From: a virus
Lineage: Duplodnaviria; Caudoviricetes
Direction: 5' to 3' (one strand)
Virus record (IMG/VR): IMGVR_UViG_3300044682_000021
Span: 96 to 64,095 of that record
DNA: 64,000 nt
Under the pieces are notes generated by a model, which did not search any database, was not told the origin of the DNA, and saw nothing but the letters and a program-made list of their open reading frames with translations. A program made the translations under genes and the position numbers. Position 1 is the stretch's first letter. Every line of letters starts with the position of its first letter. This document shows, one piece after another, positions 36,005 through 62,056 of this stretch.

Positions 36005-36702
36005 TCGTCCGCCTCCTCATAGTCGCCATCGACGGTTACTAGGTCGCGGTCCCGCGCGGGCATGAACGTCGGCACACTCTCACTCGCAGGTGGCAACGCC
36101 TGCTGTTGCCCCGCGACCAGTTGGGCGTTCCGCTGCCGCGCCTCGACGATCCGGCGGATGGTGTCCTCCGGCGCGGGGGCGGCGATGGCAGCGGCCTTGG
36201 CGTCGGCGGTTGCGGTGGCGGTGGCGTTGGTGACGATCGAGATTTGCGCGCCCTTGGCGGCGGGCAGGAAGGCCATGTGCTTGAGGTGGGCCATGCGGTC
36301 CTCGACGCCTAAGGGATTAGCCGCGCACTCCGATGACACGTCCACGATCTCTTCGTGACGCTGGGCCGCCTTCACGACGCCCAACTGTTGCGCCTGCACG
36401 CGGATGGCTTCCGCAATCACGCCGAACAGGCGCGTGGGGGAGATGCCAGCGGCGACCGCGAACGCTTCCAGCGGCAGCACGCGGCGCACGTAGGAGGGGT
36501 AGAGGAGGTTGTCGTAGCGGGCGATGAACTTGCGTGCTTCGGGAGCGTCAGAGGCACGCAGGGCCTCCAGTGCCGCAGGGAGGCCGCCGCGAATCTTGGC
36601 GATCAGGTGCGTGATGCGCGGGGCCTCGGCGACCGTGTTAGGCGGGACGCCCAGCATGTCGTAGGCGAGGGCGCGCTGGCGGGCGATGGGCAGAGGGCTC
36701 AC
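36001..36702 (-). CDS. Candidate terminase small subunit
   Basis: Position upstream of terL; HTH-like EAFAVAAGISPTRLFG; GTGA overlap with the MTase stop. Confidence 0.4.
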   Translation of the reverse strand: MSPLPIARQRALAYDMLGVPPNTVAEAPRITHLIAKIRGGLPAALEALRASDAPEARKFIARYDNLLYPSYVRRVLPLEAFAVAAGISPTRLFGVIAEAIRVQAQQLGVVKAAQRHEEIVDVSSECAANPLGVEDRMAHLKHMAFLPAAKGAQISIVTNATATATADAKAAAIAAPAPEDTIRRIVEARQRNAQLVAGQQQALPPASESVPTFMPARDRDLVTVDGDYEEADE

Positions 36703-37301
36703 GGGAGTTGCCTCGCTATGTATTCGGAGTAGGCTGGCGGGATGGCTTCTCGCGTCTCGTGGCGATTCATCCACCCTACACCCATCTCACGCCCCCACAA
36801 CTTCTCAGGGTCTTGTCGTCCAAACTCAGCATATATGCGAAGGCGACTTTCGTGGTTATGGGGATTAAGAATAGGCTTGGTAACATTGCATCGCGGTCTG
36901 GCGGCGGTCAGCCTAGGAGACTCAAATAGGCGATGGCGATGGATACGCAAGCCAAACATGGTTCCACAAAGCACGAGTGGCTCACGAAGCGGTGCCCCAA
37001 CTACGTTCTCGATTACCCAAGCTGCGGTCGAGGCCATAAGTCTATCGCGCATAGCGTCAATAAGCATAGGTTGTGGTATGGCTAGATGCCTCATAGCAGC
37101 TGAATAAGATTGGCACGGCGGACTCGCCCACACGAAGTCGAATCCATCCAGCGGATAGGTCATCGCGTCGCCAAGGACGAACGTGAACGGATACCTCGGC
37201 TGCGGCTTGATATCCACGCCGATGATTTCCGCGTCAGGCCACGCACGATGCAACCCCATCGCCGCACCGCCGGCCCCTGAAAAAAGATCCAATATTCTCA
37301 T
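36699..37301 (-). CDS. C5-cytosine DNA methyltransferase (short phage type)
   Basis: ILDLFSGAGG, ASPPCQ, IENV, RHRLFE, EAIPPAY. Confidence 0.9.
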   Translation of the reverse strand: MRILDLFSGAGGAAMGLHRAWPDAEIIGVDIKPQPRYPFTFVLGDAMTYPLDGFDFVWASPPCQSYSAAMRHLAIPQPMLIDAMRDRLMASTAAWVIENVVGAPLREPLVLCGTMFGLRIHRHRLFESPRLTAARPRCNVTKPILNPHNHESRLRIYAEFGRQDPEKLWGREMGVGWMNRHETREAIPPAYSEYIARQLP

Positions 37302-37765
37302 GCCCTTGCCTGTGTTAATGTCGTACCCTCTATTTGTCCGGTCAGAGTCAGTTCGTAATGGTGATTCGCGCATAGCAGCCTGAACTCCTTTAGGTGTTTA
37401 AGCACATACCCCGGATGTCGGGGATGGCGGAATGGCCGATTGCGCGTCGTCGGAACATAATCCACATGCAGCCAGTTTCGATTCGATGTCCGACACGAAG
37501 GGACAACACAACCTCCACCAAGAGCCTCTATGATTCGCCGACGCTCCTCTCGGTGTTTCTCTCTCCAAGCACCGGGGTTCTTGGCTAGGCGATTTCCGTT
37601 GTAAGCCTTCATCGCGTCCGGGTGCTGCTGCATCCATAGTTTCGTCTTCTTTTGGCCGGCTTTCTTGGCGCACTTCTGTGAGCAATACTGACGATTGTTG
37701 TCGCCCTGAGTAAAAACGCCAAATGACTTGCTGCATGGCTGGTAACGGCAGGTGCGCGTTTTCAT
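37298..37765 (-). CDS. HNH-like endonuclease with N-terminal Zn finger
   Basis: C..PC..F...YCSQKC; ALGGGC...C...LHVD...RLLCANHH. Confidence 0.7.
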   Translation of the reverse strand: MKTRTCRYQPCSKSFGVFTQGDNNRQYCSQKCAKKAGQKKTKLWMQQHPDAMKAYNGNRLAKNPGAWREKHREERRRIIEALGGGCVVPSCRTSNRNWLHVDYVPTTRNRPFRHPRHPGYVLKHLKEFRLLCANHHYELTLTGQIEGTTLTQARA

Positions 37766-43117: not shown

Positions 43118-44473
43118 ATGACACCTAAAGACTTGGAAGCACTCCGAAAACTTCTCGACATGGCGAAGACCTACAAAACGGCGAATTGCCTAACTGTCAT
43201 TGATGCAGAGCGAGTAATTCTACAACTTCTAGAGCAGCCGAACACCGTTGAAGTTAGCGGGATATGGCTTCGATTCATTGACGACAAGGCACAAGTTTTG
43301 GCAGAGGTTGGGGGCCATTGGCGTTTACTGATGGAAGAATCCTTCATTCTTGGCGAAGGCAATCCGAACTTTTCCCACATCTATGAACCTTCTGGCATTC
43401 GCTCAGCACCCGTAGACCCCCTAATGAAAATGAGCTATGCCGGAACAAGGGGACGACCGGAAGCGAATAACGCTGTGGCAATGGAAAAGGAGCAGAGAAT
43501 GAAAATTACACTCGAACTCTTGCGCAGCAAAGGTGCTTGCTCAGCTGGAATGACTTGGGTTGAAGAGAATCTTCCCAATGGCGCTGAGTATCAAGTTTTT
43601 CTTGATGCGCTGGCGGCTGCTGACAAGCCTGACTGGGCTTCTTGGCTTCTCGCAAACTTCGGCAGAACAACAGATATAAAGACGGTGACTGCTGTCACTG
43701 CCGGCACAAAACACATATTCGCTGCTGGGCGCTTAGTTTTTGAGTGTTCAGTAAGTGTACTCGGGGTTATCGAAGCTGGCGAGGGTATCAAAGCTGGCGA
43801 GGGTATCGAAGCTGGCGGGGGTATCAAAGCTGGCGAGGGTATCGAAGCTGGCTGGGGTATCAGAGCTGGCGTTCGTATCGAAGCTGGCGAGGGTATCAAA
43901 GCTGGCGAGGGTATCAAAGCTGGCGAGGGTATCAAAGCTGGCAGGGGTATCGAAGCTGGCAGGGGTATCGAAGCTGGCGGGGGTATCAAAGCTGGCTGGG
44001 GTATCAGAGCTGGCGGGGGTATCAGAGCTGGCGGGGGTATCAAAGCTGGCTGGGGTATCGAAGCTGGCGAGGGTATCAAAGCTGGCGGGGGTATCAAAGC
44101 TGGCGAGGGTATCAAAGCTGGCGAGGGTATCGAAGCTGGCTGGGGTATCAGAGCTGGCGGGGTTATCGAAGCTGGCGTTCGTATCGAAGCTGGCGAGGGT
44201 ATCGAAGCTGGCGAGGGTATCGAAGCTGGCGAGGGTATCAAAGCTGGCAGGGGTATCGAAGCTGGCAGGGGTATCGAAGCTGGCAGGGGTATCAAAGCTG
44301 GCGAGGGTATCAAAGCTGGCTTTCAGATCACGTGCAAACTTGACATCACTGTGAGACTAAGGATCTTCGCTGGTGTCTGTGACTGGAGATTGCCCTCTGC
44401 TGAAGAAACAACAATCACCTGCCGCGCCGTAAAGTCCGGAACTGTTGCTTTCGGATTAGTGGTGAAAGCGTAA
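43118..44473 (+). CDS. Hexapeptide-repeat (GI[EKR]AGx) beta-solenoid protein; probable internal start at 43499
   Basis: 31 repeats; AAGGAG RBS before MKITLELLRSKGAC. Confidence 0.75.
   Translation: MTPKDLEALRKLLDMAKTYKTANCLTVIDAERVILQLLEQPNTVEVSGIWLRFIDDKAQVLAEVGGHWRLLMEESFILGEGNPNFSHIYEPSGIRSAPVDPLMKMSYAGTRGRPEANNAVAMEKEQRMKITLELLRSKGACSAGMTWVEENLPNGAEYQVFLDALAAADKPDWASWLLANFGRTTDIKTVTAVTAGTKHIFAAGRLVFECSVSVLGVIEAGEGIKAGEGIEAGGGIKAGEGIEAGWGIRAGVRIEAGEGIKAGEGIKAGEGIKAGRGIEAGRGIEAGGGIKAGWGIRAGGGIRAGGGIKAGWGIEAGEGIKAGGGIKAGEGIKAGEGIEAGWGIRAGGVIEAGVRIEAGEGIEAGEGIEAGEGIKAGRGIEAGRGIEAGRGIKAGEGIKAGFQITCKLDITVRLRIFAGVCDWRLPSAEETTITCRAVKSGTVAFGLVVKA
43769..44320 (+). repeat. 18-bp coding tandem repeat, 31 units
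   Basis: ATC(GAA/AAA/AGA)GCTGGC(GAG/GGG/TGG/AGG/GTT)GGT. Confidence 0.97.
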
Positions 44474-44584: not shown

Positions 44585-44938
44585 ATGATGGAAGAGCAAG
44601 ACGAGCTGGCGATCGCGCTGCTCATTGACTCAGTGCCACCATCAGGGAAGTGCGAACACGGAGTCTACATCTCCCAACGTGCGGAAGTAAAAGAGCACCG
44701 TCAGCATTATGATAGGCTACGCCGTCTCGGGATTACACCCGAACAATTCGCGGCGAAACTGGAGTCGCAGGACGGTGTTTGCGGGCTGTGTGGTTTGCCG
44801 TTTCTACCAAACGAACCTACACCGCGTGCGGACCATGACCATGTCACGGGTGAGTTTCGAGGCGTGTTGCATCGGCATTGTAATCTTGGTTTGGGCACGT
44901 TCAACGACAATCCGATTCCGAATCCGAAGGAGAACTAA
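44585..44938 (+). CDS. Endonuclease VII-like protein, apparently chimeric or truncated
   Basis: GITPEQF..QDGVCGLC..DHDHVTGEFRGVLHRHCNLGLG.F.DN. Confidence 0.75.
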   Translation: MMEEQDELAIALLIDSVPPSGKCEHGVYISQRAEVKEHRQHYDRLRRLGITPEQFAAKLESQDGVCGLCGLPFLPNEPTPRADHDHVTGEFRGVLHRHCNLGLGTFNDNPIPNPKEN

Positions 44939-46018: not shown

Positions 46019-47341
46019 TCAGGAGGGCGGCGAGGACGCTTGTGCCACGATAGCCGCGTGGCAACACTGCGGCGCGTGTAGCGGTTTCACCCTATTGGTC
46101 GCTATAGGGCCAAACCACACTCGGGGAAATATACGCTGGATTTCGGACACAGGTGCAGGTGCGGCCATACTCATCCTTAGCGGAGTGTGATGGTTGCTGC
46201 ATTCGCCATGTCCATCGTCTTCGTCGTCAACCAGTCCGTCCTCCCACAAGCCTTCCGCTGCGTCCTCCAAAGCTTTGCCGCGGAGCGATCCGCTGGTGAT
46301 GCCAAGTTGCTGGCCAAACAACGGCTCCGCGTATTTCAGGCGCGCCCTCGCGGAGTACGTAAGAATTGGTGCTAATCCGCTGAACAATGACGCCAAGGAC
46401 TTAGCCGCCGAGCCTTGGTCATATTGCTGGCTGGTAACCTGAGTCTGGGGCTGGCAGGCGATAGCGTTGGCGTGTAATGCCTCGTGCAGCACGAGTATCG
46501 ACCAGTCTGAGTTACCGGATAGCACGATGCCTCGTGCCTTGAGCAAAACTTGCGCGATCCGTTTCCAGTTGCGAACGCAAATCGCTTCCCACATGCTGCG
46601 GATCTTGTGTAGTGTACGCGGCATGTCTATCCATAGAACATGAAAGCTAAGGCTGCGTGCGCCAGGATCAAGCACTGGAAAGAACTTGGCCCCGTAGGGG
46701 GCCTCCGCTTGACGATCCAGCGCAGCTTTGAGCTTGCGGTATAGGAATTTGGAGAGTTTGAACCGCGCGTCGAGGTCCATCTCTGGAAATGGCCCTCCAC
46801 AAGGCGTACCAATTTCCAACGAGAACTTCTGTACCTGATGCCGAGATGCGTTTGCCAGCGCATAGAGTTCGATATTCTCTCGCTTGAGTTGCCGAGTTAG
46901 AGACTCGCCCGTGCCGCAGTTACGGCACAGAAGTTTCTGCCCACAGAATACATAATAGACACGAGCCTCGTCGCCGTGCTCACACTCGGCGCGGCGGGCG
47001 AGCCGGCGGCAGGCGACGTAGGCGTTGGCCTTGGAGCGAAACGAATTGGATTCGTCGGCGGGGTTGTCTCTAGCCAGCAGAGCGAAGGACATTGCATCCT
47101 GGTCCGCGTCCAAGGGGATATCGAGATCCTGGCGCACAGTCCAGCGGGCCGTGGATGGATCGAAGATGAGCCCGCCAAGGGGCTGCATGTCGGATAGGGT
47201 TGGAGGAGTGTGGAGCGATGGATGGTCGGGCGATACGGCGAGCGGAGACGTGGTACACATAGGGGATTCTCTCTTCTGGGTAAAGAGTTTGAAAGGGCCG
47301 TGTTCCCAGCACGGCCCCCTGGTGAAGTCTGAGCGGTTCAT
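46019..47341 (-). CDS. Degenerate HUH Rep / IS91-like Zn-binding protein (start may be 47260)
   Basis: C..C..FCGQKLLCRNC Zn motif, SFHVLW in place of HxH, ITSGSLRG, and a terminal C..H. Confidence 0.45.
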   Translation of the reverse strand: MNRSDFTRGPCWEHGPFKLFTQKRESPMCTTSPLAVSPDHPSLHTPPTLSDMQPLGGLIFDPSTARWTVRQDLDIPLDADQDAMSFALLARDNPADESNSFRSKANAYVACRRLARRAECEHGDEARVYYVFCGQKLLCRNCGTGESLTRQLKRENIELYALANASRHQVQKFSLEIGTPCGGPFPEMDLDARFKLSKFLYRKLKAALDRQAEAPYGAKFFPVLDPGARSLSFHVLWIDMPRTLHKIRSMWEAICVRNWKRIAQVLLKARGIVLSGNSDWSILVLHEALHANAIACQPQTQVTSQQYDQGSAAKSLASLFSGLAPILTYSARARLKYAEPLFGQQLGITSGSLRGKALEDAAEGLWEDGLVDDEDDGHGECSNHHTPLRMSMAAPAPVSEIQRIFPRVWFGPIATNRVKPLHAPQCCHAAIVAQASSPPS

Positions 47342-48212: not shown

Positions 48213-48782
48213 ATGAGCAAAAGCACAATCAGCACCTTCCAGCTTTTCGAGATGTTCCCGACCGCTGAGTCGGCACGGCTCTATCTTGAATCCCGGCTCT
48301 GGCCCGATGGCCCATTCTGCCCTGAGTGCAAGGGTCGTGAGCGTATCGGCAAGCAGCCCAAGGTTGGCTTCTATCGCTGCAATGCTTGTGCCCTTGATTT
48401 CACAATCCGCACGGGCACGATCTTCGAGCGCAGCCATATTCCCTTGCACAAGTGGCTCTACGCCATGTACCTGCTCGTGACTGCTCGGAAGGGTATCTCT
48501 AGCCTGCAACTGGCGAAAGAGATTGGTGTCACTCAGAAGTCCGCATGGTTTATGCTCCAGCGTCTCCGCGAAGCGTGTGGCTCTGGCGATGACCTTGACA
48601 AGTTGCGTGGGACTCTCGTAGAGGCAAATCATGAAAACTCCCCCAGAGCTAGATCGAATCGCGGACAAAGTTCTCTCGTATCGTCCGAAACCCAAGACCA
48701 AAGCGGCCAAGCGCCGGAAGCGAAGGAATCAATATGCGAAACGTCGAAGGAGCGCCTGACCTATGCGGGGTTGACGGCATGA
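48213..48782 (+). pseudogene. IS1595 transposase lacking the DDE domain
   Basis: FPT..AR.YLE..LWPDGPFCPEC, FTIRTGTIFERSHIPL.KW, KGISSLQLAKEIG; no VEIDET motif; C-terminal RLTY..L retained. Confidence 0.85.
48631..48759 (+). CDS. 42-aa basic peptide nested out of frame in the transposase remnant
   Basis: Manual: MKTPPELDRIADKVLSYRPKPKTKAAKRRKRR...; GAGG RBS. Confidence 0.5.
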   Translation: MKTPPELDRIADKVLSYRPKPKTKAAKRRKRRNQYAKRRRSA

Positions 48783-49230: not shown

Positions 49231-49815
49231 ATGTCTAACGCATTGAAAGAACAGTTGTTAAGTAGTTACAGTTGGGTCGGAGAACTAGCGGCACGGGTGG
49301 CTAGAATTGAGGCCGCCGCTAAGCACATTGGGCTGGATGACGCTTTGGATGGTGTAGAAGCTTACTGCACTATCACCACCTATGGAGACGCGCCGGAAAT
49401 TTCCTGCTCACTCTATGTCCAGCGCGGCATCACCGCCGACTTTCAAACTCTGACAGAAAGTAATCCCTTACAGGTGTTGGCGAAGCGCCTTCTGCCAGCC
49501 GTGGGCAAGTTCACCAAGGGCTTCGATGACAGCAGCAACCGTCTTACCTTGACCGCCGATGTGATGGGTGTCAAGTTGATCTTAGGCATGAGCACGCCTA
49601 GTACATGCACGGTCGAAACGGTCACGGAAGAGGTTGAGGTACCTGAAGAGGTGATCCCGGCGCACACGGAGAAGAAGACGCGATATGTGCTCAAAGGAGA
49701 TTGCGCGCCGATCCTTGCGGCTACAGAGGACGAGGCTGCGCTGGTCGTAGGGACGGCACAGGCCGTGGCAGAGATCGGCGAGATCGTGGACCGAGTGACG
49801 GAAGGACGGATCTGA
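49231..49815 (+). CDS. Hypothetical protein
   Basis: AGGAGG RBS before MSNALKEQ. Confidence 0.6.
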   Translation: MSNALKEQLLSSYSWVGELAARVARIEAAAKHIGLDDALDGVEAYCTITTYGDAPEISCSLYVQRGITADFQTLTESNPLQVLAKRLLPAVGKFTKGFDDSSNRLTLTADVMGVKLILGMSTPSTCTVETVTEEVEVPEEVIPAHTEKKTRYVLKGDCAPILAATEDEAALVVGTAQAVAEIGEIVDRVTEGRI

Positions 49816-51557
49816 TGAAAACCGTCTATACTGACCGCTCGCGCATCCTCGCCTACCAGCAGTGCCCCCGGCTCCGCTACCTTCAGTACCACCAGGACGG
49901 CACTGGGATTGAGAGTGCTCGCAAGCCGCTCCCATTGGCCGTGGGTGGGGCCGTGCATAAGGGATTGGAGACGCTGCTGCGTGACGGTGGCGCAATGTGG
50001 GAGCACGGCGATCCCGCGATCAAGTTGCCTTGGGGTGAACTCAGCAAGGTATGGATGACTAAGATAGAAGATGACGCGGTCGCCGCCGCCCTCGCCGACT
50101 TCTCCACCCACCGCTCCGCCTTGGCGCTGGACCTTACGGAGGCCACCGCCCTTGCCGCCGCGCTGGACCCCAAGGACGGGGGATTCGCGGCGCAACTCAC
50201 CGCCACGGCGCAGGAGCTGGGCATGTCGCCAGACGATCCCTCCCTCGCGGAGCTGCTGGGTCGGCAGCGCAACGCCGCTGCGGAATACGACGACTGGCTC
50301 TGGCGTGAGCAGGCCGCGCTGGTCGAGGGGATGGTGCGCGCCTACGCGCGGCGGCGGCTGCGGCCGCTGCTGGAGGAGTTCGAGGTGCTGGAGGTGGAGC
50401 GGGAAGAGGAGTGGGAACTGGCGGAAGAGTGGATGCTGAATCCGAATGGAGATCCGTATTGCCGTAAGTGTGGAGAGCATTGGGCACGAACTACTCATAA
50501 CCCCAATAAGAAGGTAGAAGGTAGCCACACATTTGAGAACCCTAATTACTTGGGTCCGATCCGTTTCCTATCCCGCCCCGACGCCCTCCTGCGGTCCCGC
50601 GCCGACAACTCCCTCTACCTGCTGTCGTTCAAGACCGCCGCGTCGTGGGACATCCGCAAGGAGCGCGACGCGCAGCATGACATGCAGGGGCTGAGCGAGG
50701 GCGTGGGAGTGGAGAAGCGGCTGGGGGAGTGGTGGGCTCTGCTGCATTCTCGCATCATGCCCCAACAAGGCAATCCACCAATCGACGCCCCATCTCAGGC
50801 GATGTACAACTACCTCGTGGCACTCCCCGCTCCGCCCCGCATCCTCGGCATCCGCTACGAGTACCTGCTCAAATCAAGTAGATATGCTGACAAAGACCTA
50901 GCCGCCAGATTCGGTCTAAATGTCTGGGCACAAAGATCGCATCTTATTCGTGCGTATCAAGGTGCTGATAACTCTTGGTGCTGGAGTTATGAATTCAAAA
51001 AGGATGATGGAGGAGATTCCAAGCTATATTACAAGAATTGGCGGCCAAAAGCCGTCTGGGAGGTCATGTCAATTAAACAGTGGATTGATATGCTGGACGC
51101 CAGCATCGAAACCATGTCAGCCGAGGACTCTACAATAGGCATGGAACCTAGGCTTTTGGGGTATAGGTCAGAGGCTCAGGCCCAAGGCTACACCGCGACG
51201 CATCCGCTAGACGACGTGTTTCCTGCGCCGCTGACCGTGTACCGACAGGACGACGATCTCCGCGACTGGGTGGAGCAGACGGAGGCGCAGGAACGCCGCG
51301 TCGCTGAGGCTGTAGCACGGATCGACGCTGCTGTGGACGATGGAGAGAAGCGTCATCTACTAAACGTTCTCGCTCCTATGTCGAGGCGCAGTTGCTCCTA
51401 CCCGGTGGAATGCGTCTACGCCAAGTCGATTTGCTATGGTGGCGAGGACGCCCGACGTGATCCACTAGGCACAGGCGCGTTCCGCCGGCGAGAGCCCAAC
51501 CATCCCGCCGAGGACGCTGTATTGAATAGCGTCGCGGCCCAAGGGCCGATTCGGTGA
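49815..51557 (+). CDS. PD-(D/E)XK Cas4/RecB-like exonuclease
   Basis: SRILAYQQCPR, GGAVHKGLE, VE, SRPDAL, SFKT, C...C.Y...C. Confidence 0.85.
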   Translation: MKTVYTDRSRILAYQQCPRLRYLQYHQDGTGIESARKPLPLAVGGAVHKGLETLLRDGGAMWEHGDPAIKLPWGELSKVWMTKIEDDAVAAALADFSTHRSALALDLTEATALAAALDPKDGGFAAQLTATAQELGMSPDDPSLAELLGRQRNAAAEYDDWLWREQAALVEGMVRAYARRRLRPLLEEFEVLEVEREEEWELAEEWMLNPNGDPYCRKCGEHWARTTHNPNKKVEGSHTFENPNYLGPIRFLSRPDALLRSRADNSLYLLSFKTAASWDIRKERDAQHDMQGLSEGVGVEKRLGEWWALLHSRIMPQQGNPPIDAPSQAMYNYLVALPAPPRILGIRYEYLLKSSRYADKDLAARFGLNVWAQRSHLIRAYQGADNSWCWSYEFKKDDGGDSKLYYKNWRPKAVWEVMSIKQWIDMLDASIETMSAEDSTIGMEPRLLGYRSEAQAQGYTATHPLDDVFPAPLTVYRQDDDLRDWVEQTEAQERRVAEAVARIDAAVDDGEKRHLLNVLAPMSRRSCSYPVECVYAKSICYGGEDARRDPLGTGAFRRREPNHPAEDAVLNSVAAQGPIR

Positions 51558-53010: not shown

Positions 53011-53187
53011 CTCAAACCCGCCCCCAAGCACGGCCCGTCGATCCGCATCCGGTTCCGCAACCTAGCCCAGAGGAACGCGCTTCGCCGGGCCGCCCGCCTC
53101 CGAGGGCTGACCCTGAACACTTACGCCATGACCGTGCTGGTGGATGCGGCGCGGGTGGCCCTGAAAGGAGTGGGCGGCAATGGCTAA
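52996..53187 (+). CDS. Ribbon-helix-helix (Arc-like) regulator
   Basis: IRIRF strand plus LRRAARLRGLTLNTY helices. Confidence 0.7.
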   Translation: MNNTTLKPAPKHGPSIRIRFRNLAQRNALRRAARLRGLTLNTYAMTVLVDAARVALKGVGGNG

Positions 53188-54214
53188 ATCCGGCTGCATC
53201 TACGGGCCAACGTCTTCGTTCAAGACGACCGCTATCGCCCACTTCGCGCACTATATCGCGGAGAAGACGGGCAAAGCGACGCTCCTGTTCAGCGCTGACG
53301 GCGGCGGCTGGGCGCCATGTGAGGAAGAAGTCCGCGCTGGGATGATCCGCCCTTACCGCTGTGACACGGCGAACATTCCTCTTCCAGTGGTTCGCAAGGT
53401 GTCGCAGGGCTACTGGCCGCGCAACCCTGAAGAGACGGATATTGCCAAGGTAGAGTTCCACCGTGCCAACTGGGACGAGATCGGTGGGATAGCGGTCGAG
53501 GGATTCACCTCGATCGGCACCATGTTCATGCGCCACGCAGCGGACAAGAACCTGAAAACGGGCGAGGAGGGAACGTCGAAGTTCTACCAGCCTATCAACA
53601 TCGCAGGCAACGTCGAGCAGGAAGTGTTTGCTGGTTCTTCGAAAGGGCACTACAATTTTGTGCAAAATCAACTCTTCGGCATGACCATGAATTTCACGTC
53701 CCTGCCTGTCGAGTACGTCCTGTTCACGGGACTGGAGAAAAAGGGCGAGGATGACGACCGCTCGACAGTGTATGGCGTCAGCGTCCCTGGTAAGGCGATC
53801 ACCAACCAGATCCCGACGTGGGTGGGTGATTTAATCCACGCGCAGGACTTCGCGGTGCCGCGAAAGGTACGGGTTCCGCCACCGGGTAAGATCGCAGCGC
53901 AGTGCAAACCGGAGGAGCTGATAGAGACGGACATTGTGGACACCGTGTGCCGTTACTACTTCAAGAAGCATCCAGACCCGTCGAGTGGGATCATGTTCCC
54001 CGCCAAGCCACGCGTGACTCACGGCGCGGTCAGGGAGTTGGAGAAACGCTATCCTGGTGGATACTTTGAGCCTTCTACAGAATCGGGATTCGACGACTAC
54101 CTGCGCGTGATCGACGAACTTAGCGCCGGACGGGCGGATTCGATGAAGGACTGGCGTGCCAAGGCTGACGCCAAGCTGGGGCGTGGGGTGGCGGGAGTAG
54201 CAACACCAAAATGA
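53180..54214 (+). CDS. Sak4/AAA_24-like ATPase
   Basis: IYGPTSSFKTT Walker A variant, IAVEG, PGKA...IPTWVG; lies between nuclease and SSB-like genes. Confidence 0.7.
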   Translation: MAKSGCIYGPTSSFKTTAIAHFAHYIAEKTGKATLLFSADGGGWAPCEEEVRAGMIRPYRCDTANIPLPVVRKVSQGYWPRNPEETDIAKVEFHRANWDEIGGIAVEGFTSIGTMFMRHAADKNLKTGEEGTSKFYQPINIAGNVEQEVFAGSSKGHYNFVQNQLFGMTMNFTSLPVEYVLFTGLEKKGEDDDRSTVYGVSVPGKAITNQIPTWVGDLIHAQDFAVPRKVRVPPPGKIAAQCKPEELIETDIVDTVCRYYFKKHPDPSSGIMFPAKPRVTHGAVRELEKRYPGGYFEPSTESGFDDYLRVIDELSAGRADSMKDWRAKADAKLGRGVAGVATPK

Positions 54215-54662: not shown

Positions 54663-55412
54663 ATGTCCGCATTTGGAGAAGTCACCTACGCCGACGCGCC
54701 TGCCGAAGCCGCAGCCGCGCCCAGCGAGCAACCTCAACTCATCGACCCCAACGACCCCCGGCTCACGTCGGAAACGCTCACCGACTCCGGCGCTGACGCC
54801 TACGCGATCCTGCCTCCGCTCCCCGATGGCAAGTGGCGCGCCAAGGCCAAGCAGGTGGACATCAAGGACGACAAGGGGCAGCAACAGCGGTACTCCGTGT
54901 TCTCGCGGCCCAAGATGGCGAACGGAGCGCCGTTCTTCGCCACCAACGTGGAGTTCTCGATCATCGACCATTCGGGCAAGAACGACGGCGTCAAGCTGAC
55001 CGAGTATTGGGTCAAGACGCTGATCGACGACCGCAAAGGGACCAGCCAAGCGGCGACGCTGATCCGCAAACTGGGCAAGCCGACGCCGCCCGCCGCCACG
55101 CATAAGGTGATCATCGACCTGCTGCTGGCGACCCTCGCCGCCGAGCCGGAGCTGGTGGTCGAAACGTCATGGTCCGCCGAGTGCCAGCACTGTCAGGAGT
55201 CGGCGAAGAAGAAGGGCGACCGCGCCCCGCGACCGTTCCTGCAAGGGATGCACCGCTTCCCTGCGACCAAGGTTCCGGGCGAGCACGACCCGATGGCCAA
55301 GTGTGGGACGTGCAACTCAATGGTGCGGGCGCAGCCGCGGATCGTAGGTTTCTATTCCCTCGCCGAATCGCAGCCGACGCGGGGCACGGGGCACGCGGCG
55401 ACGGGGAAGTGA
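54663..55412 (+). CDS. Probable ssDNA-binding protein with Zn ribbon
   Basis: PPLPDGKW N-terminal motif; position after the Sak4-like ATPase; CQHC..CGTC. Confidence 0.55.
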   Translation: MSAFGEVTYADAPAEAAAAPSEQPQLIDPNDPRLTSETLTDSGADAYAILPPLPDGKWRAKAKQVDIKDDKGQQQRYSVFSRPKMANGAPFFATNVEFSIIDHSGKNDGVKLTEYWVKTLIDDRKGTSQAATLIRKLGKPTPPAATHKVIIDLLLATLAAEPELVVETSWSAECQHCQESAKKKGDRAPRPFLQGMHRFPATKVPGEHDPMAKCGTCNSMVRAQPRIVGFYSLAESQPTRGTGHAATGK

Positions 55413-55624: not shown

Positions 55625-55852
55625 GTGACGCGAACGGCTTGCGTTACATACCAGTCGAGGTGGATGATGGCCAGCCAAGCAACTGAGAACTGGATGCCTC
55701 GCTGCCCGCAGTGCGGACAAGGCACGCCCATGCTGGCCCCTGCCAACGGGTTCACCAAGCATATCGTGGACAAGGTGGAAGTGTACTGTGCGGAGTGTCG
55801 CTGGCGGGCGGTGCTGGCGGATGTGATAACGCAGGTGTATGTGAGGAGCTGA
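55625..55852 (+). CDS. Small Zn-ribbon protein
   Basis: CPQCG...YCAEC; start probably later (MMASQ). Confidence 0.55.
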   Translation: MTRTACVTYQSRWMMASQATENWMPRCPQCGQGTPMLAPANGFTKHIVDKVEVYCAECRWRAVLADVITQVYVRS

Positions 55853-55854
55853 GG

Positions 55855-57357
55855 ATGCCGCATGGATTCCCTATCGACGCTGCTGTGCCCGATTCACCAC
55901 GTCCCCCTGACGCTGCGAACGCTGGTACTGGGATCGTTCGGCCTGCTGCCGGAGGACCGACGCCGCTACGAATGGTGGCAATGCCTGACGGAGATACCGA
56001 ACGTGTCGCCGCAGGCACAGAAGCCGTCGAGGAGGTGCCAATACTGCTTGCCGAGGACGGCGGCGAGTCCGCCGGCATTCCCGGCGAATCTGGCGGTGAC
56101 ACTGCATTCCCATGTGAGTTCATTTGCGGAGTTGCAGGGAGCGGCAAAACCCACACCGTCCGCGAAGCCATCGTCGCTGATCCATCGTGGGGCCTCCTCT
56201 GTGCTACGACCGGGATCGCGGCCATCAACCTCGGGGCGGTGACCCTGAACTCTACGCTTGGCTACTTCGACACCGACAGCCTCCGCGACGCCTACCTATC
56301 CGGCCAACTGGTACGCAAGCTCAAGGCCATCCGCGAGGACTACCGCCGACTGGCGATCGACGAAGTGTCGATGATGGACGGCGACCAGCTCGGCATCCTG
56401 GTCCGCGCCACGCGGGTGGCCAACTCGTTCAAGTCCGCCACGGGCGCGCCGCCCTTGGGATTGTGCCTCGTGGGCGACTTCGCCCAGTTGCCGCCCGTCC
56501 GCGCCCGATGGGCGTTCGAGTCCGACGAATGGCGGCGCTTCGATGAGCATACTACCCGGCTCACGAAGGTGTGGCGGCAGGGGCTGGGGCCGTTCCTCGA
56601 CGCGCTCAACTTTGCCCGCAGTGGGGACGGTGGCCAAGCCGCCGCGTTGTTGTCCGAGTCCGGCCTTGAATGGCACACTGGCTTGGACATCAACTTTGAT
56701 GGCACAACCATCGTCCCCAAGAACGACGCCGTGGACCGATATAACGGGATGGCCCTCGACCGCCTGCCGGGGCCGACGTTCACTCTCGCTTCCCGCCGCT
56801 GGGGCAAGCAGCGCGGCGACTGGAAGCAGGTGCCGGAGGGGGTCAAGTTGAAGCGCGGGGCCTATGTCATGCTGCTGGCGAACGCCTACGACGATGAGGG
56901 GCGTATGGAGTACGCGAACGGGGATTGCGGGCACGTAATCGAGCAGACGCCAGGAGGATTGTGTGTGGAACTCGTTCGTAATGGTGCGGTCGTGGGAGTC
57001 GAGCGCGTCTGCCGCGACGTGGGCCACAAGGGCAAGCCCACCGGCTGGGACGGCGTAACCGGACACGGCGAGTGGCTCCCGCGACCGCACTGGATGCCCG
57101 ACAAGCGGCGCTACGTCGAGGGCCAGTGCGAGTTCTTCCCGGTGCGACTGGCGTATGCGAGCACGGTACACAAGTCGCAAGGGCTGAGTTTGGATCGCCT
57201 CCAAGTCGATGTGCGGGACCATTTCTTCTCCAGTTACGGGATGATCTATGTTGCGATGTCACGGGCCAGAACGTTGGAGGGACTGCGGATCGTGGGGCAG
57301 AAGGAACGATTTATAACTCAGTGTAAATGTGATCCGAGGGTACGACGATGGCTGTAG
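55855..57357 (+). CDS. Pif1/RecD-like SF1B helicase
   Basis: GVAGSGKT, TTGIAA, IDEVSM, GDFAQLPPV, WRQ, LAYASTVHKSQG, YVAMSR. Confidence 0.93.
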   Translation: MPHGFPIDAAVPDSPRPPDAANAGTGIVRPAAGGPTPLRMVAMPDGDTERVAAGTEAVEEVPILLAEDGGESAGIPGESGGDTAFPCEFICGVAGSGKTHTVREAIVADPSWGLLCATTGIAAINLGAVTLNSTLGYFDTDSLRDAYLSGQLVRKLKAIREDYRRLAIDEVSMMDGDQLGILVRATRVANSFKSATGAPPLGLCLVGDFAQLPPVRARWAFESDEWRRFDEHTTRLTKVWRQGLGPFLDALNFARSGDGGQAAALLSESGLEWHTGLDINFDGTTIVPKNDAVDRYNGMALDRLPGPTFTLASRRWGKQRGDWKQVPEGVKLKRGAYVMLLANAYDDEGRMEYANGDCGHVIEQTPGGLCVELVRNGAVVGVERVCRDVGHKGKPTGWDGVTGHGEWLPRPHWMPDKRRYVEGQCEFFPVRLAYASTVHKSQGLSLDRLQVDVRDHFFSSYGMIYVAMSRARTLEGLRIVGQKERFITQCKCDPRVRRWL

Positions 57358-57554
57358 ACGACAGCAGCAAGCCGCCCGTGATAATGACCGAGTGGGGCCC
57401 GGTAACCGAGTCCGCGCGCAAGCAAGCGGCGTTGAACATCGCCCGCAACCCTGCGCTGCGCGACCGCATGTTCGCCCAGTTCGGCGAGGCCAAGGTGCGG
57501 GCGCAGTACCCGGAAGCGTTTGAGGAGGGCGAGAGCGATGCCAAGGCCGATTGA
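57348..57554 (+). CDS. Hypothetical protein
   Basis: Overlaps the helicase stop; GC3-biased. Confidence 0.55.
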   Translation: MAVDDSSKPPVIMTEWGPVTESARKQAALNIARNPALRDRMFAQFGEAKVRAQYPEAFEEGESDAKAD

Positions 57555-57819
57555 AAAGGTGGACGTGCCTGTCGGCTCCGTGGAGTACAAGATCGTCTAC
57601 ATCGACAAGCTGTTGGTGTCGGCGGGATTTGCCGCCTCTCGCTCCGAGGCCATGCGGCTGGTCAAGGCGGGCGCGGTGACGATCAAGGACGGCGATCTGG
57701 GGTGGGAGGGGCGCGACGTGTGGGGTTGGGGACCGCCGAACCAAGCGTTGATGCCGTTCGGCAGGGTGTTCCAGATGCGGGTGGGAAGGATGCACAAGGG
57801 GGTAAGGATTCGTGCGTAG
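57538..57819 (+). CDS. Stand-alone S4 RNA-binding domain (TyrRS C-terminal-like)
   Basis: IDKLLVSAGFAASRSEAMRLVKAGAVTI...MRVGR. Confidence 0.8.
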   Translation: MPRPIEKVDVPVGSVEYKIVYIDKLLVSAGFAASRSEAMRLVKAGAVTIKDGDLGWEGRDVWGWGPPNQALMPFGRVFQMRVGRMHKGVRIRA

Positions 57820-57840: not shown

Positions 57841-58047
57841 ATGGCCTATCACACACTAACGACTGAAAGCGGCGGCGACGAGCGCTCGCGTATTGAGGAG
57901 GCACACACTATCGTGCGTCTGCTTGAGGAAGTGACCGAGGAGATGACGCCGAAGGAGCGCGAGTTCGTCGAACAGATGGCGGACTGCGACTACTGCACCA
58001 CGAAGCAGGTGTTCTGGCTGCGTGACATCAAGGATAAGTATCTATGA
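57841..58047 (+). CDS. Hypothetical protein
   Basis: GGAGG RBS; ATGA coupling to the polymerase. Confidence 0.6.
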   Translation: MAYHTLTTESGGDERSRIEEAHTIVRLLEEVTEEMTPKEREFVEQMADCDYCTTKQVFWLRDIKDKYL

Positions 58048-60995
58048 GAGCCAAGCCTTCCAGTTGCGACGGCTGCCAGTTGCAGCACCGAGGCACCGAC
58101 TTCTCTCAGGTCGAGGGGACCGGATCGCTCGGCGTAATGATCGTGGCGGAAGCGAGTGGCGAGATGGAAGCCCGCGACCAACTGCCGCTGCGTCCCTACG
58201 CCCCCGCCGGGTCGCTGCTGGAGCGGACATTCCGACGGATAGGTTACTCGCGGCAACAATTCTCACTGACCAACACCCTCCGCTGCCGCCCGCCGAATAA
58301 TTGGCTCTCGGGCGCGCCGTGGGAGTTCTCCGCCCTCAACCATTGCCGCCCCAACCTCGACGCCGCCATCGGCGACCGCCGGCCGCGCGCGATCCTGGCG
58401 CTGGGTGACACCGCGCTGCGGGAACTGACGGGGGAGGCAGGGGAGGCGAGGGGCGTGTCGCATCTGGCGGGGTACGTGTTGCCGACTACCTCCGTGCGTG
58501 AGCCTTGCACGAACTGTATCAGCTACGAATCGGAAATGAAGGACGCATCTTGCAGCGCGTGTCGCGGGAGTGGATTAGTGCAGAATGGGGGGACGGGCAG
58601 CATCCCCGTGATCCCCACCTTCCACCCCGCGTTCATCCGCCGCGGCAAGGCATCCCTGCAAGGCTTGTTCGCCCGCAACCTGCAACGCGCGGTGAACGTG
58701 GCAGCGGGGCGGGACAGAGAGTGGGAGTGGGACTTAGAGGAGGCACAACGCAATGGACGCATCAGATATCAGGTACATCCTAGCCTTGACGAGGCGCGAT
58801 CATTTGTTACGCGAGTTAGAGGAAATTCGGGATTCACTCTCAGTTACGACATCGAGACTTTCGAGAGCGCGAGTCTTGATGAGGACGCTAGAGACGGATT
58901 TACTGATACTAGAATCCGGCTCATCCAGTTCTCAGTCGAAGGAGGCTCTGGAATCGCTCTACCTTGGGACGGCGATTATCGAAGAGTTGCTCAAGAGCTA
59001 CTCCTCCTCCCAAACACTAAATGCGGCCACAACCTCTGGCTCTTCGACAACCGCGTCCTCGAAGCCTGCGGGGCCCGCGAGGGACTAGACCTCCGCCCCC
59101 GCGGCCCGATCCACGACACCCTCGCCATGTTCCACCACTGGCAGCCGGACCTCCCGGCCCACCTCCAGTTCGCGGCACAGTTCGTGTCGTTCCCGTTCCC
59201 GTGGAAGCACCTGGCGGCGACGGATCTGGAATTCTACGGCTGCGTGGACGTGGATGCGACGCTGCGGCTGTACACGTTCTTACGGGCACAATTAGAAAGG
59301 GATGGTATATGGGACGACCAAAGCTACATGAACACACTTGCCCCTTCTGTAAGCAGCCTTGGACACACAACAACAGCGCATGTACCGACGGAGAGTATCG
59401 AGCCTGCCGATTCTGCAAAGACGCTTATCACCTACAAGAGCGTTCGAGGGTACGTCGGGCAAGTGGCTGAAGTGAGGCCGATCCTCGCGGCGATGGAACG
59501 CCGTGGATTGCCAGTGGACGACGCCGAGCGGCTGAAGCTGGACGGGGAGTTTGACTTGGCGCAACAGGAACTCGACGCCCAGTTGCAGGCCCGTGTCCCT
59601 GCCGAGGTGCTGGGACTGGAGCCGCGACGGGGGAAGAAAGGGAACTATGACTATGGCTACCTTAAAACGCCGAAAGATACTGACGGTCTCGTATTGCGGA
59701 CCTTTACCATCGCCGCGATTGATGAAAGCACTCAGGAGCCTTGCACGCGCAGCGTCGAACGCTATTGCCGCATCGTTCCATTCAACGCCAATTCAGGTCA
59801 GCAGTTGCTGCGGTACATGGACGCAAGAAAGCATAAAAGGCCGAAGTCACGTGAGCAAGACGACGAGGGGAACGACAAAGACACGACAGGCAAGAAAGAG
59901 TTAGTGCGGCTGGCTCATCGGAGCGGCGACGACTTCTACTTGAAGGTGATCGAGTACCGGGAACTCAGCAAGATGCGCGGGACGTATATCGAGGGATTCG
60001 TGCCACACACGGACGGTCGCGTCCACACGACGTTCACGTTCGACACTGGCATCGGCCAACTATCGTCGCGTAATCCCAACATCCAGAATTATCCGAAGCA
60101 TGGGCGACTGGCGAAAGCGGTACGCAAGATGATCGCGGCCAAGCCAGGCCATGTCCTCACCGAATGGGATTATAAGTCCTGCCACGTTCTCACTCTCGGC
60201 TTCCTCGCAGAAGACGCCAATTACATCCGTTGCGCCCGCATCGACATGCACTCCATTGTCACGGGGCATAAGCTCGGCCTGTGGCACGCCATCCAACTCC
60301 TGCGCGACTACGATGACGCGGCCATCCGCGCCAAGTGCAAATGGCTGAAGTCGAACGCCGAGTGGAAGCACATCCGCGACGCCCGCATGAAGCACGCCAT
60401 CCTCGGCATCGGCAACGGCCTGAAGGCGCGCGGGCTGTACGAGAAGCACATGGAGGACTTCTCGTCGCAGAAGGAGGCGCAGTCGTTCCTCGATGTGGTG
60501 GAGGAACTGTTCCCCAAAGTGTTCGCGTGGCACAAGATGGTGCAGCAGAAGGCCCATGACCAGCAATGGCTGAAGACACAGTACGGCCACATGCGGCGGT
60601 TCTACGAAGTGTTCGTGTGGAACTACAAGAAGGCTGCGTATGGCCACGGCGATCAGGCGGAGGAGGCTATCTCCTACTGGCTGTCCAACATCGCGTTCGG
60701 TTACATCCGCGAGCACATGAAGCTCTTGGAGGCGGCAGGACTCAACGAGAAGTACGGCCTGTGCAACAACGTCCACGACTCGCTGATGTTCCACTTCCCT
60801 GCCGCCATGCTGGACGAGCACGTGCGGGAGGTATACCCGCTGCTGGTCACGCCGTCGAAGGTGCTCACCCACCCGACGATATGCCCCGAGGGGCTGTGGA
60901 TCGACGCGGAGGCGAACGCGGGGCCGAACTGGGCGGAGATGGAGGAAGTGGCGATACCAAAGGAGGCTCACCTTGAAGCTACGCCAGTATCGTAA
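58044..60995 (+). CDS. Family A DNA polymerase with N-terminal family-4 UDG-like domain and 3'-5' exonuclease
   Basis: VAEASG, RCRPP, HPAF (UDG); YDIET, HN..FD, YGCVD (exonuclease); GQLSSRNPNIQN, DY, DMH, HD (polymerase). Confidence 0.93.
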   Translation: MRAKPSSCDGCQLQHRGTDFSQVEGTGSLGVMIVAEASGEMEARDQLPLRPYAPAGSLLERTFRRIGYSRQQFSLTNTLRCRPPNNWLSGAPWEFSALNHCRPNLDAAIGDRRPRAILALGDTALRELTGEAGEARGVSHLAGYVLPTTSVREPCTNCISYESEMKDASCSACRGSGLVQNGGTGSIPVIPTFHPAFIRRGKASLQGLFARNLQRAVNVAAGRDREWEWDLEEAQRNGRIRYQVHPSLDEARSFVTRVRGNSGFTLSYDIETFESASLDEDARDGFTDTRIRLIQFSVEGGSGIALPWDGDYRRVAQELLLLPNTKCGHNLWLFDNRVLEACGAREGLDLRPRGPIHDTLAMFHHWQPDLPAHLQFAAQFVSFPFPWKHLAATDLEFYGCVDVDATLRLYTFLRAQLERDGIWDDQSYMNTLAPSVSSLGHTTTAHVPTESIEPADSAKTLITYKSVRGYVGQVAEVRPILAAMERRGLPVDDAERLKLDGEFDLAQQELDAQLQARVPAEVLGLEPRRGKKGNYDYGYLKTPKDTDGLVLRTFTIAAIDESTQEPCTRSVERYCRIVPFNANSGQQLLRYMDARKHKRPKSREQDDEGNDKDTTGKKELVRLAHRSGDDFYLKVIEYRELSKMRGTYIEGFVPHTDGRVHTTFTFDTGIGQLSSRNPNIQNYPKHGRLAKAVRKMIAAKPGHVLTEWDYKSCHVLTLGFLAEDANYIRCARIDMHSIVTGHKLGLWHAIQLLRDYDDAAIRAKCKWLKSNAEWKHIRDARMKHAILGIGNGLKARGLYEKHMEDFSSQKEAQSFLDVVEELFPKVFAWHKMVQQKAHDQQWLKTQYGHMRRFYEVFVWNYKKAAYGHGDQAEEAISYWLSNIAFGYIREHMKLLEAAGLNEKYGLCNNVHDSLMFHFPAAMLDEHVREVYPLLVTPSKVLTHPTICPEGLWIDAEANAGPNWAEMEEVAIPKEAHLEATPVS

Positions 60996-62056
60996 CTCGG
61001 ACGGCTCGACGGAGGTTGTGGTTGAGGGGACGAACGCTCGCCTTCGGGCGCTGCTCGGGGCAGATATCGTCCCAGCTCGCCGATTCCGTGCGACGGTTCA
61101 TCCCGATAGCACGCCGCTTGCCACGGACACGGCCCTCCCGCCAGCGGATCGCACGCCGACCGCGCCATCGGCATCACCATCGCCTGCGTCCCTGCCACCG
61201 ATGCCATTTCCCTGGCCAGCAGAGCGACTTCATCACGTACTCGACGTAGATGCGACGGGGCAGGTAGCGAAATGGATATGTGATGAAGGAGGGCGGGGGT
61301 AACGTGATCGTCGTCCATCAGGTCGCACCATTCGTCGGGATCTGGCTTCGTCTGGTCCGCATACCACAAGGGCGTCCACTTGTCGCCGCTCAACTTGCGC
61401 CATCCGCCCTTGCCGTCGGGCCGCTGGAACCGGAACATCCCCGCGATGCACGGGTGCCGCCAGCAGCGCGCCCACGGCGAATGCCGCCGGCCCGCCACCT
61501 GCCGTCCGATCTCCACGACGTGCAGGTCCATTGGCAGCTCACAGAAGGCCATGTCCGCGATGGTGTGCCACGAGTGGGCCTCGCGGGCGAGGTCGGCGTC
61601 GGACCAGGAGTCGATGGTGAGGTAGCGGTGGAGGCGGGTGATGGAAGAATAGGAGAGAGGCTGATATGACAGATACTCAGACTGTAACGTTGTTGTGTGA
61701 GGGGATGTATCTAGAGGCGCTATTGGGGGTAATTTTTGGAGCTTGGGCAATGTGGTACGCGACAGGGCCGTTAAGACGACTCCTAGCATCCCGCACCAGT
61801 CCTGCGCCACCGTCCACGGATCTCCCGCCGTCACGTCCAGCCCCGGATTCGCTGCCTGCGCCAGAAAGCGAGTTCGAGCGCTGGACACGACAGTGGCAGG
61901 AGCGGCCCCCGACGATAATTGGAGTAGACCTTGGCGCAAGCACGAGTCGAATAGGGATTTTGGTCGGCGACGAGCAACCTGCCACGTCCGCTCCAGAATC
62001 CAGCGGCGGCGGCACGTCTGCCACTGGCGAAGATCGGAGGCGGTGAATGTTGTCAC
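60968..62056 (-). CDS. Second Cas4/PD-(D/E)XK-like protein; catalytic motifs appear eroded
   Basis: ASDLRQWQTCRRRW and C....GGPCPWQAACY; GTGA coupling to the upstream ejection-type gene. Confidence 0.7.
   Translation of the reverse strand: MTTFTASDLRQWQTCRRRWILERTWQVARRRPKSLFDSCLRQGLLQLSSGAAPATVVSSARTRFLAQAANPGLDVTAGDPWTVAQDWCGMLGVVLTALSRTTLPKLQKLPPIAPLDTSPHTTTLQSEYLSYQPLSYSSITRLHRYLTIDSWSDADLAREAHSWHTIADMAFCELPMDLHVVEIGRQVAGRRHSPWARCWRHPCIAGMFRFQRPDGKGGWRKLSGDKWTPLWYADQTKPDPDEWCDLMDDDHVTPALLHHISISLPAPSHLRRVRDEVALLAREMASVAGTQAMVMPMARSACDPLAGGPCPWQAACYRDEPSHGIGELGRYLPRAAPEGERSSPQPQPPSSRPSYDTGVASR

Follow-up and report, generated by a model that had tools for sequence, protein, structure and literature searches.

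The stretch of DNA analysed here, referred to as the window, comprises 64,000 nucleotides (bases 96-64095 of the 64,095-bp IMG/VR virus record IMGVR_UViG_3300044682_000021, CheckV completeness 100%; G+C 52-66%) and is essentially the entire genome of an uncultured phage of ~64 kb. Its polA gene (58044..60995, + strand) encodes a protein of 983 amino acids (aa), recognised from its open reading frame (ORF), Pfam, an AlphaFold2 model and Foldseek, in which domains for uracil-DNA glycosylase (UDG), 3'-5' exonuclease and family A DNA polymerase follow one another. The protein displays both catalytic Asp residues of family A, the Arg and Lys of motif B, the His of motif C and a Klenow-like fold, and lacks four further features of the family: the Glu of the steric gate (here H714), the Arg of the TGR motif (Q672), the Tyr at position B4 (N791) and the aromatic residue at B3 (L787).

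Pfam places the UDG domain at residues 28-204 (E 4.7e-15, 56.3 bits against a cut-off of 24.3) and DNA_pol_A (PF00476) at residues 574-935 (E 4.1e-29, 102.1 bits against 34.3). The AlphaFold2 model, built with 95 homologues, has a mean predicted local distance difference test score (pLDDT) of 91.4 and a predicted template modelling score (pTM) of 0.89; its top Foldseek match is the Klenow fragment (1kfs, E 1.4e-25, TM-score by target 0.76), followed by the large fragments of Bst and Taq. The exonuclease domain (58761..59303, +), which aligns with the corresponding motifs of E. coli Pol I, has its DEDDy residues intact in near-invariant columns: D269/E271 form the DxE of Exo I, N330/D335 the Nx(2-3)F/YD of Exo II and Y398/D402 the YxxxD of Exo III. 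These residues are at least 90% conserved in a 95-sequence alignment of the clade.

The N-terminal family-4 UDG-like domain (~aa 1-225; 58044..58718, +) is delimited by Pfam, TIGR00758, phmmer and near-invariant columns, and contains Cys8, Cys11, Cys81 and Cys101, the string AEASGEME, Asn77 and His194-Pro195. It scores 68.1 bits against NCBIfam TIGR00758, under the cut-off of 125.3, and phmmer aligns it to the family-4 UDGs 1l9g, 1vk2, 4zbx and 1ui0. The clade consensus reads GEAxGxxE, PF, E36, N77, H194-P195 and Cys at positions 8, 11, 81 and 101, the four Cys being residues that we take to be Fe-S ligands; by these predicted catalytic motifs the clade groups with the "active-type" UDGs. The window protein itself reads AEASG where the clade has GEAxG, and PL where it has PF. 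A variable loop of the domain (aa 155-175; 58506..58568, +) holds a zinc-ribbon-like CxxC-x12-CxxC insertion, modelled at low confidence (pLDDT 63-75). Two or more CxxC pairs are present in 3/95 aligned sequences (the window protein, P0206 and P0211) and a single pair in P0012; being sporadic (3/95 plus one partial) and not a trait of the lineage, the insertion was rejected as a primase-like element.

The polymerase pocket and its lineage

Residues of the pocket are related to E. coli numbering through hhalign of the 95-sequence clade alignment against polA of MG1655 (probability 99.9). Motif A (60162..60185, +), located by phmmer, hhalign and column counts, reads E707-W-D709-Y-K-S-C-H714 and comprises Glu707, the catalytic Asp709 and, at the steric-gate position (A2), His714; its DYKSCH core occupies aa 709-714 (nt 60168-60185). 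Motif B, the O helix (60375..60419, +), includes R778, K783, L787 (B3), N791 (B4) and G792, with RMKHAILGIGNG at aa 781-792 (nt 60384-60419), and motif C is H911-D912-S913 (60774..60782, +) within VHDS (aa 910-913, nt 60771-60782), both assigned by hhalign and column counts. A sequence-only reading of the window had picked out these three strings at 60150-60800 (present at nt 60168-60782) and had equated the changes by eye with E710H, F762L, Y766N and E883S. All four are recovered by hhalign, which pairs D709 with D705, H714 with E710, K783 with K758, L787 with F762, N791 with Y766 and H911/D912/S913 with H881/D882/E883, and a pocket rewired at A2, B3, B4 and C3 is borne out. The alignment of motif A to Taq by phmmer is free of gaps (wdykschvltlgflaed to ldysqielrvlahlsgd), and R778 pairs with R754, one residue being inserted after R778.

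A fifth substitution, absent from that list, is Gln672 (60057..60059, +), which hhalign pairs with R668 and which turns TGR into TGQ; Gln is found here in 94/95 clade sequences and in 253 of 262 aligned relatives. In the motif 6 region AEEAISYWLSNIAFG (60657..60701, +; hhalign and column counts), the register is ambiguous by one residue, and Arg841, Asn845 and Gln849 are kept in neither of the two registers.

To follow the extent of these changes, phmmer was run exhaustively over 1.84 billion cluster representatives; it found 14,776 PolA-like sequences with E <= 0.001, 723 of them reaching E <= 1e-30. The best 150 of the 14,776 were examined (all at E <= 4.6e-113); 145 align across the motifs, and 142 of these 50%-identity representatives have His at the gate. 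Together with 120 closer relatives from a word-indexed search they yield 262 aligned proteins, with identities down to ~33%, in which His714 is conserved in 256 and Leu787 in 234; chance cannot account for such retention of His. Position 791 is Asn in 118, Phe in 111, Leu in 23 and Tyr in 4, and position 913 is Ser in 186, Ala in 40, Glu in 12 and Asp in 11. The rows without Gln672 are largely accounted for by intein junctions (6/8 aligned rows), the other two being the aberrant P0098 (Glu) and P0110 (Gly). Phe replaces the gate His in P0182 and P0184, both ~70% identical to the window protein in the polymerase domain. Bacterial Pol I sequences, used as a positive control, read R/E/F/Y/E in the same columns in 24/24 cases, which validates the column mapping.

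Starting out from P0115, the most divergent member at 33% identity to the window protein, a further search found 22 more relatives, all with Gln672 and His714 (22/22), before E-values jump from 1e-31 to 1e-9, where ordinary bacterial Pol I begin. Due to this abrupt drop to canonical enzymes, the lineage appears discrete, with no intermediate forms within the P0115 search. The pocket substitutions are signatures of a lineage and are not private to this phage; the lineage is known from metagenomes only, and is large, with at least 142 clusters at 50% identity. Many of the relatives are 1200-1700 aa long. In P0004, P0006, P0013, P0050, P0112 and P0240 the alignment breaks exactly at TGQ|LSS, with a "...SHNS" junction that looks like an intein in the active-site motif. 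In P0098 and P0134 the catalytic Asp of motif A is replaced by Arg and the gate residue by Trp; the two are perhaps inactivated copies.

The joint replacement of several residues described as critical in Klenow, and the absence of the catalytic Asp from P0098 and P0134, could also be understood if the polymerase domain were degenerate and non-catalytic, replication being left to the host polymerase. This is very improbable: D709, D912, H911, K783 and R778 are conserved in 94-95 of the 95 clade sequences, the exonuclease residues are likewise maintained, strong purifying selection acts on the whole pocket in relatives that are 33-87% identical, and polA is present in 22/22 related loci.

The history of the individual positions was traced on a FastTree phylogeny of 248 rows, those of the 262 with a coverage of 85% or more in polymerase columns 575-975 (the remaining 14, with lower coverage, were dropped), the five trait columns having been removed beforehand. 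The gate changes twice on this tree (His 245, Phe 2, Val 1), against 24 changes at B4, where N, F, L and Y replace one another, and 20 at B3. Asn791 is the mark of a close subclade (~55% identity and above), with Phe or Leu in the wider lineage. The proposal of the sequence-only reading that His and Asn co-evolved as a pair does not survive this comparison. The order of change suggested by the tree is that His came first and was fixed and that the former Tyr position was freed later, 791 being able to vary between Asn, Phe and Leu since no Glu is left for it to hold. The natural occurrence of Phe at the gate argues that the side chain there acts as a flat, bulky block rather than through acid-base chemistry or metal binding.

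A second dependency links motifs A and C. Glu707 lies on the strand of the catalytic Asp, two positions ahead of it. It accompanies Ser913 in 168 and Ala913 in 30 of the 262 sequences, and is found in 0/12 sequences with Glu913 and in 0/11 with Asp913. In 12 phylogenetically independent pairs contrasting acidic with non-acidic residues at 913, Glu707 shifts in the opposite sense in ~9, in the same sense in none, and is unchanged in ~3 (median sign-test p 0.004). The third carboxylate would, on these patterns, toggle between Glu707 in the motif A strand (nt 60162..60164) and position 913 in motif C (nt 60780..60782). Outside the lineage, the pairing of Glu with a non-acidic residue is shared by the unrelated phage polymerases of DLP_3 (E two residues before the Asp, HDA) and MW202554 (E, HDS), and is not seen in SP-10 (Q, HDS) or N4 (G, HDA). 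What had been listed as a plain loss, E883S, is better described as one side of this exchange; nor is a gate Glu hidden elsewhere, as Glu707 covaries with motif C and not with the gate.

Neighbouring genes and the primase question

The absence of a visible primase, first remarked on from the sequence, extends beyond this genome. No primase family matches the window in searches of 71 ORFs with Pfam, 72 with PHROGs and 50 with NCBIfam. Twenty-two related IMG/VR loci were collected; of these, 17 belong to genomes that measure 54-65 kb and have a completeness of at least 93%, and ten of the 17 carry direct terminal repeats. Six-frame searches detected Prim-Pol (PF09250) in 0/17 genomes, and Toprim_2 (PF13155) and Zn_ribbon_DnaG (PF01807) each in 0/18. 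The statement stands for the whole group at the level of profile searches, small non-conserved ORFs not having been folded.

Gene conservation was counted in the ±10-kb flanks of the 22 loci, which correspond to window genes from ~48 kb on. A superfamily 1B (SF1B) helicase of Dda/RecD/PIF1-like type (55711..57357, +; phrog_325, 1.5e-58; AAA_30 and PIF1) is present in 21/22 loci, its true start being probably downstream of the listed GTG. It is preceded by a 249-aa protein (54663..55412, +; 20/22 loci; AlphaFold2 pLDDT 77.9) that resembles single-stranded DNA-binding (SSB) proteins with an oligonucleotide/oligosaccharide-binding (OB) fold and ends in a C-terminal Cys4 ribbon; VIA-align matches it to PrgE at the top (Z 7.1) and to RPA70C, Teb1 and PriB (Z 3-4), all values in the middling range. 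Further upstream lie a Sak4-like RecA-fold ATPase (53180..54214, +; phrog_124, 2.1e-6; 19/22 loci) and a 618-aa PD-(D/E)XK nuclease with a C-terminal Cys cluster (49701..51557, +; 12/22 loci), assigned through PDDEXK_1 matches in 4/8 family members (best E 4.5e-7), the window copy itself giving no match. A second, weaker PD-(D/E)XK-like protein of 362 aa (60968..62056, - strand; 11/22 loci), convergent with polA, belongs to a family in which 4/12 members match PDDEXK_1 weakly (best E 0.078). Profile and sequence searches of the PDB with the 618-aa and 362-aa families returned nothing useful, and BLASTP found no similarity between the two. The conserved replication proteins around polA resolve into nucleases, an ATPase, an SSB and a helicase, none of them a primase. 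A hidden primase among the conserved unknowns was rejected on these grounds (the 249-aa protein being SSB-like, the other two families matching PDDEXK_1), and the search of the hypothetical ORFs for a divergent one came out empty for the conserved neighbours.

Another candidate is a 440-aa ORF in a lower-G+C stretch (46019..47341, -), which resembles Rep_1/IS91-type HUH initiators (atlas feature score 0.96; structural TM 0.5-0.57). It was counted separately from the flanking genes and is found in 4/18 genomes, for which reason a rolling-circle initiator was rejected as the answer to the missing primase. A six-frame search with Pfam Rep_1 had no match anywhere and is uninformative, the controls being equally without match. 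Beside this ORF lies an IS1595-type zinc-ribbon/transposase fragment (48213..48782, +; phrog_25593, 3e-22; NF033547, 1e-16); the two probably represent a mobile insert, since divergent copies occur in only 3/17 relatives. A virion or early RNA polymerase among the large unknowns also gained no support, the 1400-aa and 1073-aa proteins having no phmmer match in the PDB and only "hypothetical protein" clusters in the atlas.

It is in this setting that a relaxed gate has to be considered, in which His714, Leu787 and Asn791 would together admit ribonucleoside triphosphates (rNTPs) or allow self-started chains, replacing the missing primase. Klenow's Glu-Tyr pair, on which its sugar discrimination depends, is indeed gone, the primase searches are negative as described, and the text of Czernecki et al. 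(2023; PMC10201439) reports an A-family enzyme, the CCPol-MP primase-polymerase of staphylococcal SCC elements, that acts without a classical primase with the help of a partner protein. However, CCPols are described there as missing most of the exonuclease domain and requiring the partner MP, whereas the window protein is full length with its proofreading motifs intact. His and Phe are moreover bulkier than Glu at the gate, and Asn791 is limited to one subclade while the primase is absent from all 18 genomes, so that the two do not track each other. Relaxed gates usually carry small residues, as in Klenow E710A and Taq E615G, and many phages borrow the priming of their hosts. Relaxation of the gate is accordingly regarded as unlikely.

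Some fragments in bacterial assemblies give hints of the host. Small contigs of a Terracidiphilus metagenome-assembled genome (MAG) and a Solirubrobacterales MAG (L039-L041) contain SSB-like, helicase and polymerase genes with close polymerase fragments. A 2.5-Mb contig of an Acidobacteriota MAG (L042:4998-5609) has a 203-aa remnant of the exonuclease domain, 63% identical, adjoining a ParB-methyltransferase gene.

Elsewhere in the window, a 99-aa protein with an S4 RNA-binding domain is encoded just upstream of polA (57520..57819, +; Pfam S4, E 4.4e-6; 0/22 related loci). A 451-aa protein (43118..44473, +) consists in its central 200 residues of ~30 tandem 6-residue GI(E/K/R)AG(E/G/R) units and has only a weak repeat match. 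The window also includes an HNH endonuclease beside the portal gene (30623..31126, -; phrog_3377, E 1.3e-35), an endonuclease VII-type resolvase (44585..44938, +) and a C5-cytosine methyltransferase-like gene (36699..37373, -). For the majority of the other ORFs no family was matched.

Sugar selection in the Klenow fold

The fusion to a UDG domain had been taken, by comparison with SPO1, to point to unusual bases. An N-terminal family-4 UDG-like domain is indeed present. The fusion alone is no such pointer, as the text of Czernecki et al. (2023; PMC10201439) describes N4-like phages with a UDG and no known modification, and 0/71 window ORFs match nucleotide-modification families. A pocket adapted to non-canonical DNA, whether a modified dNTP pool or a modified template, would nonetheless fit with an active-type UDG guarding a thymine (T)-replaced genome, as in SPO1-like and SP15-like phages. 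The clade's UDG keeps catalytic-type motifs (E36, N77, H194-P195 and the four Cys) like those of the active SPO1 and SP15 groups, whose genomes are T-modified in the text of Missoury et al. (2026; PMC13697223), and residues that read the minor groove have been exchanged (R668 and, probably, Q849). Against this, no window ORF (0/71; Pfam, E <= 0.05) matches thymidylate-synthase-like, deaminase, dUTPase, kinase or glycosyltransferase families, and the genome and at least 17 relatives could be assembled from metagenomes sequenced in the ordinary way. It is towards the sugar and the minor groove that the substituted residues point, whereas the known phage modifications of T, C and G lie in the major groove. 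The SPO1 relatives SP-10 and SBSphiC, furthermore, have fully canonical motifs A and B. Adaptation to non-canonical DNA is for these reasons held to be doubtful.

We consider it probable that the enzyme is an ordinary proofreading replicase, selective for dNTPs and fitted with an aromatic steric gate, whose primers come from the host or from recombination, and that His at the gate is most likely an alternative way of excluding RNA building blocks. The 983-aa protein would be a replicative DNA polymerase in which the sugar and minor-groove side of the active site has been rebuilt. Its UDG domain may scan the template for uracil ahead of the polymerase, by analogy with the SP15-like enzymes, and the DEDDy exonuclease, with its residues intact, would proofread. 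The imidazole of His714, or the Phe ring in two relatives, would block the 2'-OH sterically, as aromatic and His gates do in other polymerase families. Leu787 would stand in for the sugar-stacking Phe, Gln672 for the minor-groove Arg of TGR with a shorter contact, and Glu707 would take over the role of Glu883. DNA would still be made from dNTPs, and the primers would come from the host or from recombination 3' ends supplied by the module of nuclease, Sak4-like ATPase, SSB and SF1B helicase.

A parallel for such a gate lies outside family A. In the text of PMC8485763, the presumptive steric gate assigned to Pol III alpha is a His, and His760 of the E. coli enzyme is proposed to clash with the 2'-OH of an rNTP; this enzyme differs in fold and belongs to family C, and serves as an analogy only. 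The two Phe-gate relatives and the His gate of Pol III alpha argue for a steric block that has been retained rather than opened.

Several points weigh against the replicase reading. The residues altered jointly include several that are important in Klenow (R668, E710, Y766 and probably R841, N845 and Q849), and the behaviour of the enzyme could be further from Klenow than a like-for-like swap implies. The predicted contact of His714 with C2' is derived from sequence register, not from a distance, and the independence of the Glu707/913 exchanges depends on the FastTree topology. The softened UDG motifs of the window protein may indicate a weak glycosylase, and the reading leaves the absence of a primase from 18 genomes unexplained. 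A more far-reaching possibility, to which only a small likelihood is assigned, is that this is the first natural A-family lineage to have lost both the Glu gate and the TGR Arg, and that its His/Leu/Asn pocket and weakened minor-groove readout give it a genuinely different substrate range (efficient incorporation of rNMPs or 2'-modified nucleotides, extension of RNA or mismatched ends, even chain initiation), which would allow a whole group of phages that lack a primase, probably of Acidobacteriota, to do without a dedicated one in replication. Taken as a whole, the observation made from the sequence is confirmed and extended, and its interpretation is partly supported.

Across family A, from Pol I and T7 to Pol gamma, theta and nu, the Glu gate, its Tyr partner and the TGR Arg count as fixed features, and polymerase engineering for RNA, xeno nucleic acids and 2'-modified nucleotides begins at these same residues. 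A lineage that replaces all three together and keeps proofreading is a natural test of alternative sugar selection in the Klenow fold, and an engineering scaffold. The toggle of the third carboxylate offers a concrete, testable structural rule, and the primase-less replication module raises the question of how abundant soil-type phages start DNA synthesis.

Comparison with known polymerases

To our knowledge, every characterised PolA has a Glu steric gate. Searches by tblastn against 50,697 phage records gave best matches that are 22-28% identical, none covering 80% of the window protein, and the gate Glu is present in every named phage checked (SP-10, SBSphiC, ZHS, DLP_3, Anansi, MW202554 and N4). 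Motif A reads DYGQIE in ZHS and Anansi, DYSQGE in DLP_3 and DKNQLE in MW202554. The substitutions E615H, E710H, E658H and E480H were found in no paper of the literature search; a search on "UDG-PolA" returned Czernecki et al. (2023) only, and the steric-gate literature contained no natural His-gate PolA, although figures or supplements might show such a variant. The His-gate UDG-PolA subfamily, of which we could not find a description, is apparently an undescribed lineage.

The text of Czernecki et al. (2023; PMC10201439) sorts PolAs into 19 clusters, names A2 the steric gate and describes UDG-PolAs as N4-like, SPO1-like or unclassified. It presents Phe at B4 as unique to two DpoZ clusters and, as the sole change in TGR, Thr-to-Ala in APEX 2. 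No cluster in that text accommodates a lineage that combines TGQ, His at A2 and Asn, Phe or Leu at B4; the sequence logos (Figure 3) or supplements might show such a combination.

The SPO1-like and SP15-like enzymes (SPO1, SP-10, SP-15, YerA41 and phiLo), as described in the texts of PMC10201439 and PMC13697223, likewise join an exonuclease and a family A polymerase to an N-terminal UDG domain of family-4 type that has motifs of the catalytic kind. In the SP15-like structures the UDG domain excises template dU ahead of the polymerase, and E710 is still cited as the gate (Missoury et al., 2026; PMC13697223, text). SP-10 shares HDS in motif C with the window protein. By contrast, SP-10 and SBSphiC have canonical DYSQLELR, TGRLSS and KAVGFGLLYG in addition to VHDS, where the pocket of the window protein is rewired, and are only ~22% identical to it by tblastn; with this identity and its non-canonical polymerase motifs, the window protein falls outside the group. 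The two large inserts and the C-terminal domain of SP15-like enzymes are not evident in it, no structural comparison having been made. The genomes of these phages are T-modified, whereas Pfam found no T-modification genes among the 71 window ORFs.

The N4-like enzymes (cluster 17; Czernecki et al., 2023) have the same order of UDG, exonuclease and polymerase in a linear phage genome of 55-70 kb, similar to that of the window, relatives of which have direct terminal repeats. However, the N4 DNA polymerase reads SGRLSS, DFASLE with a Glu gate and IHDA, where the window protein has TGQ, a His gate and HDS. Its UDG is described in the text of PMC10201439 as catalytically dead and its B3 residue as Phe, against Leu in the window protein. 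As phmmer aligns only 63 residues of the two polymerases, and with Leu at B3 and no Glu gate, the window protein lies outside cluster 17.

The groups with Leu762 (SPO2-like, KPP25-like, APEX, CHEAP, phiJL001-like and the phiVC8 DpoZ) share Leu at B3 with the window protein. Nasko et al. (2018; PMC6302109) associate these groups with SF1 and SF2 helicases of the non-ring kind, and in the window a gene for an SF1B helicase likewise adjoins polA. In the text of PMC10201439, however, Phe at B4 is confined to DpoZ and the TGR motif changes only from Thr to Ala, whereas the lineage described here has Gln within TGR and Asn, Phe or Leu at B4.

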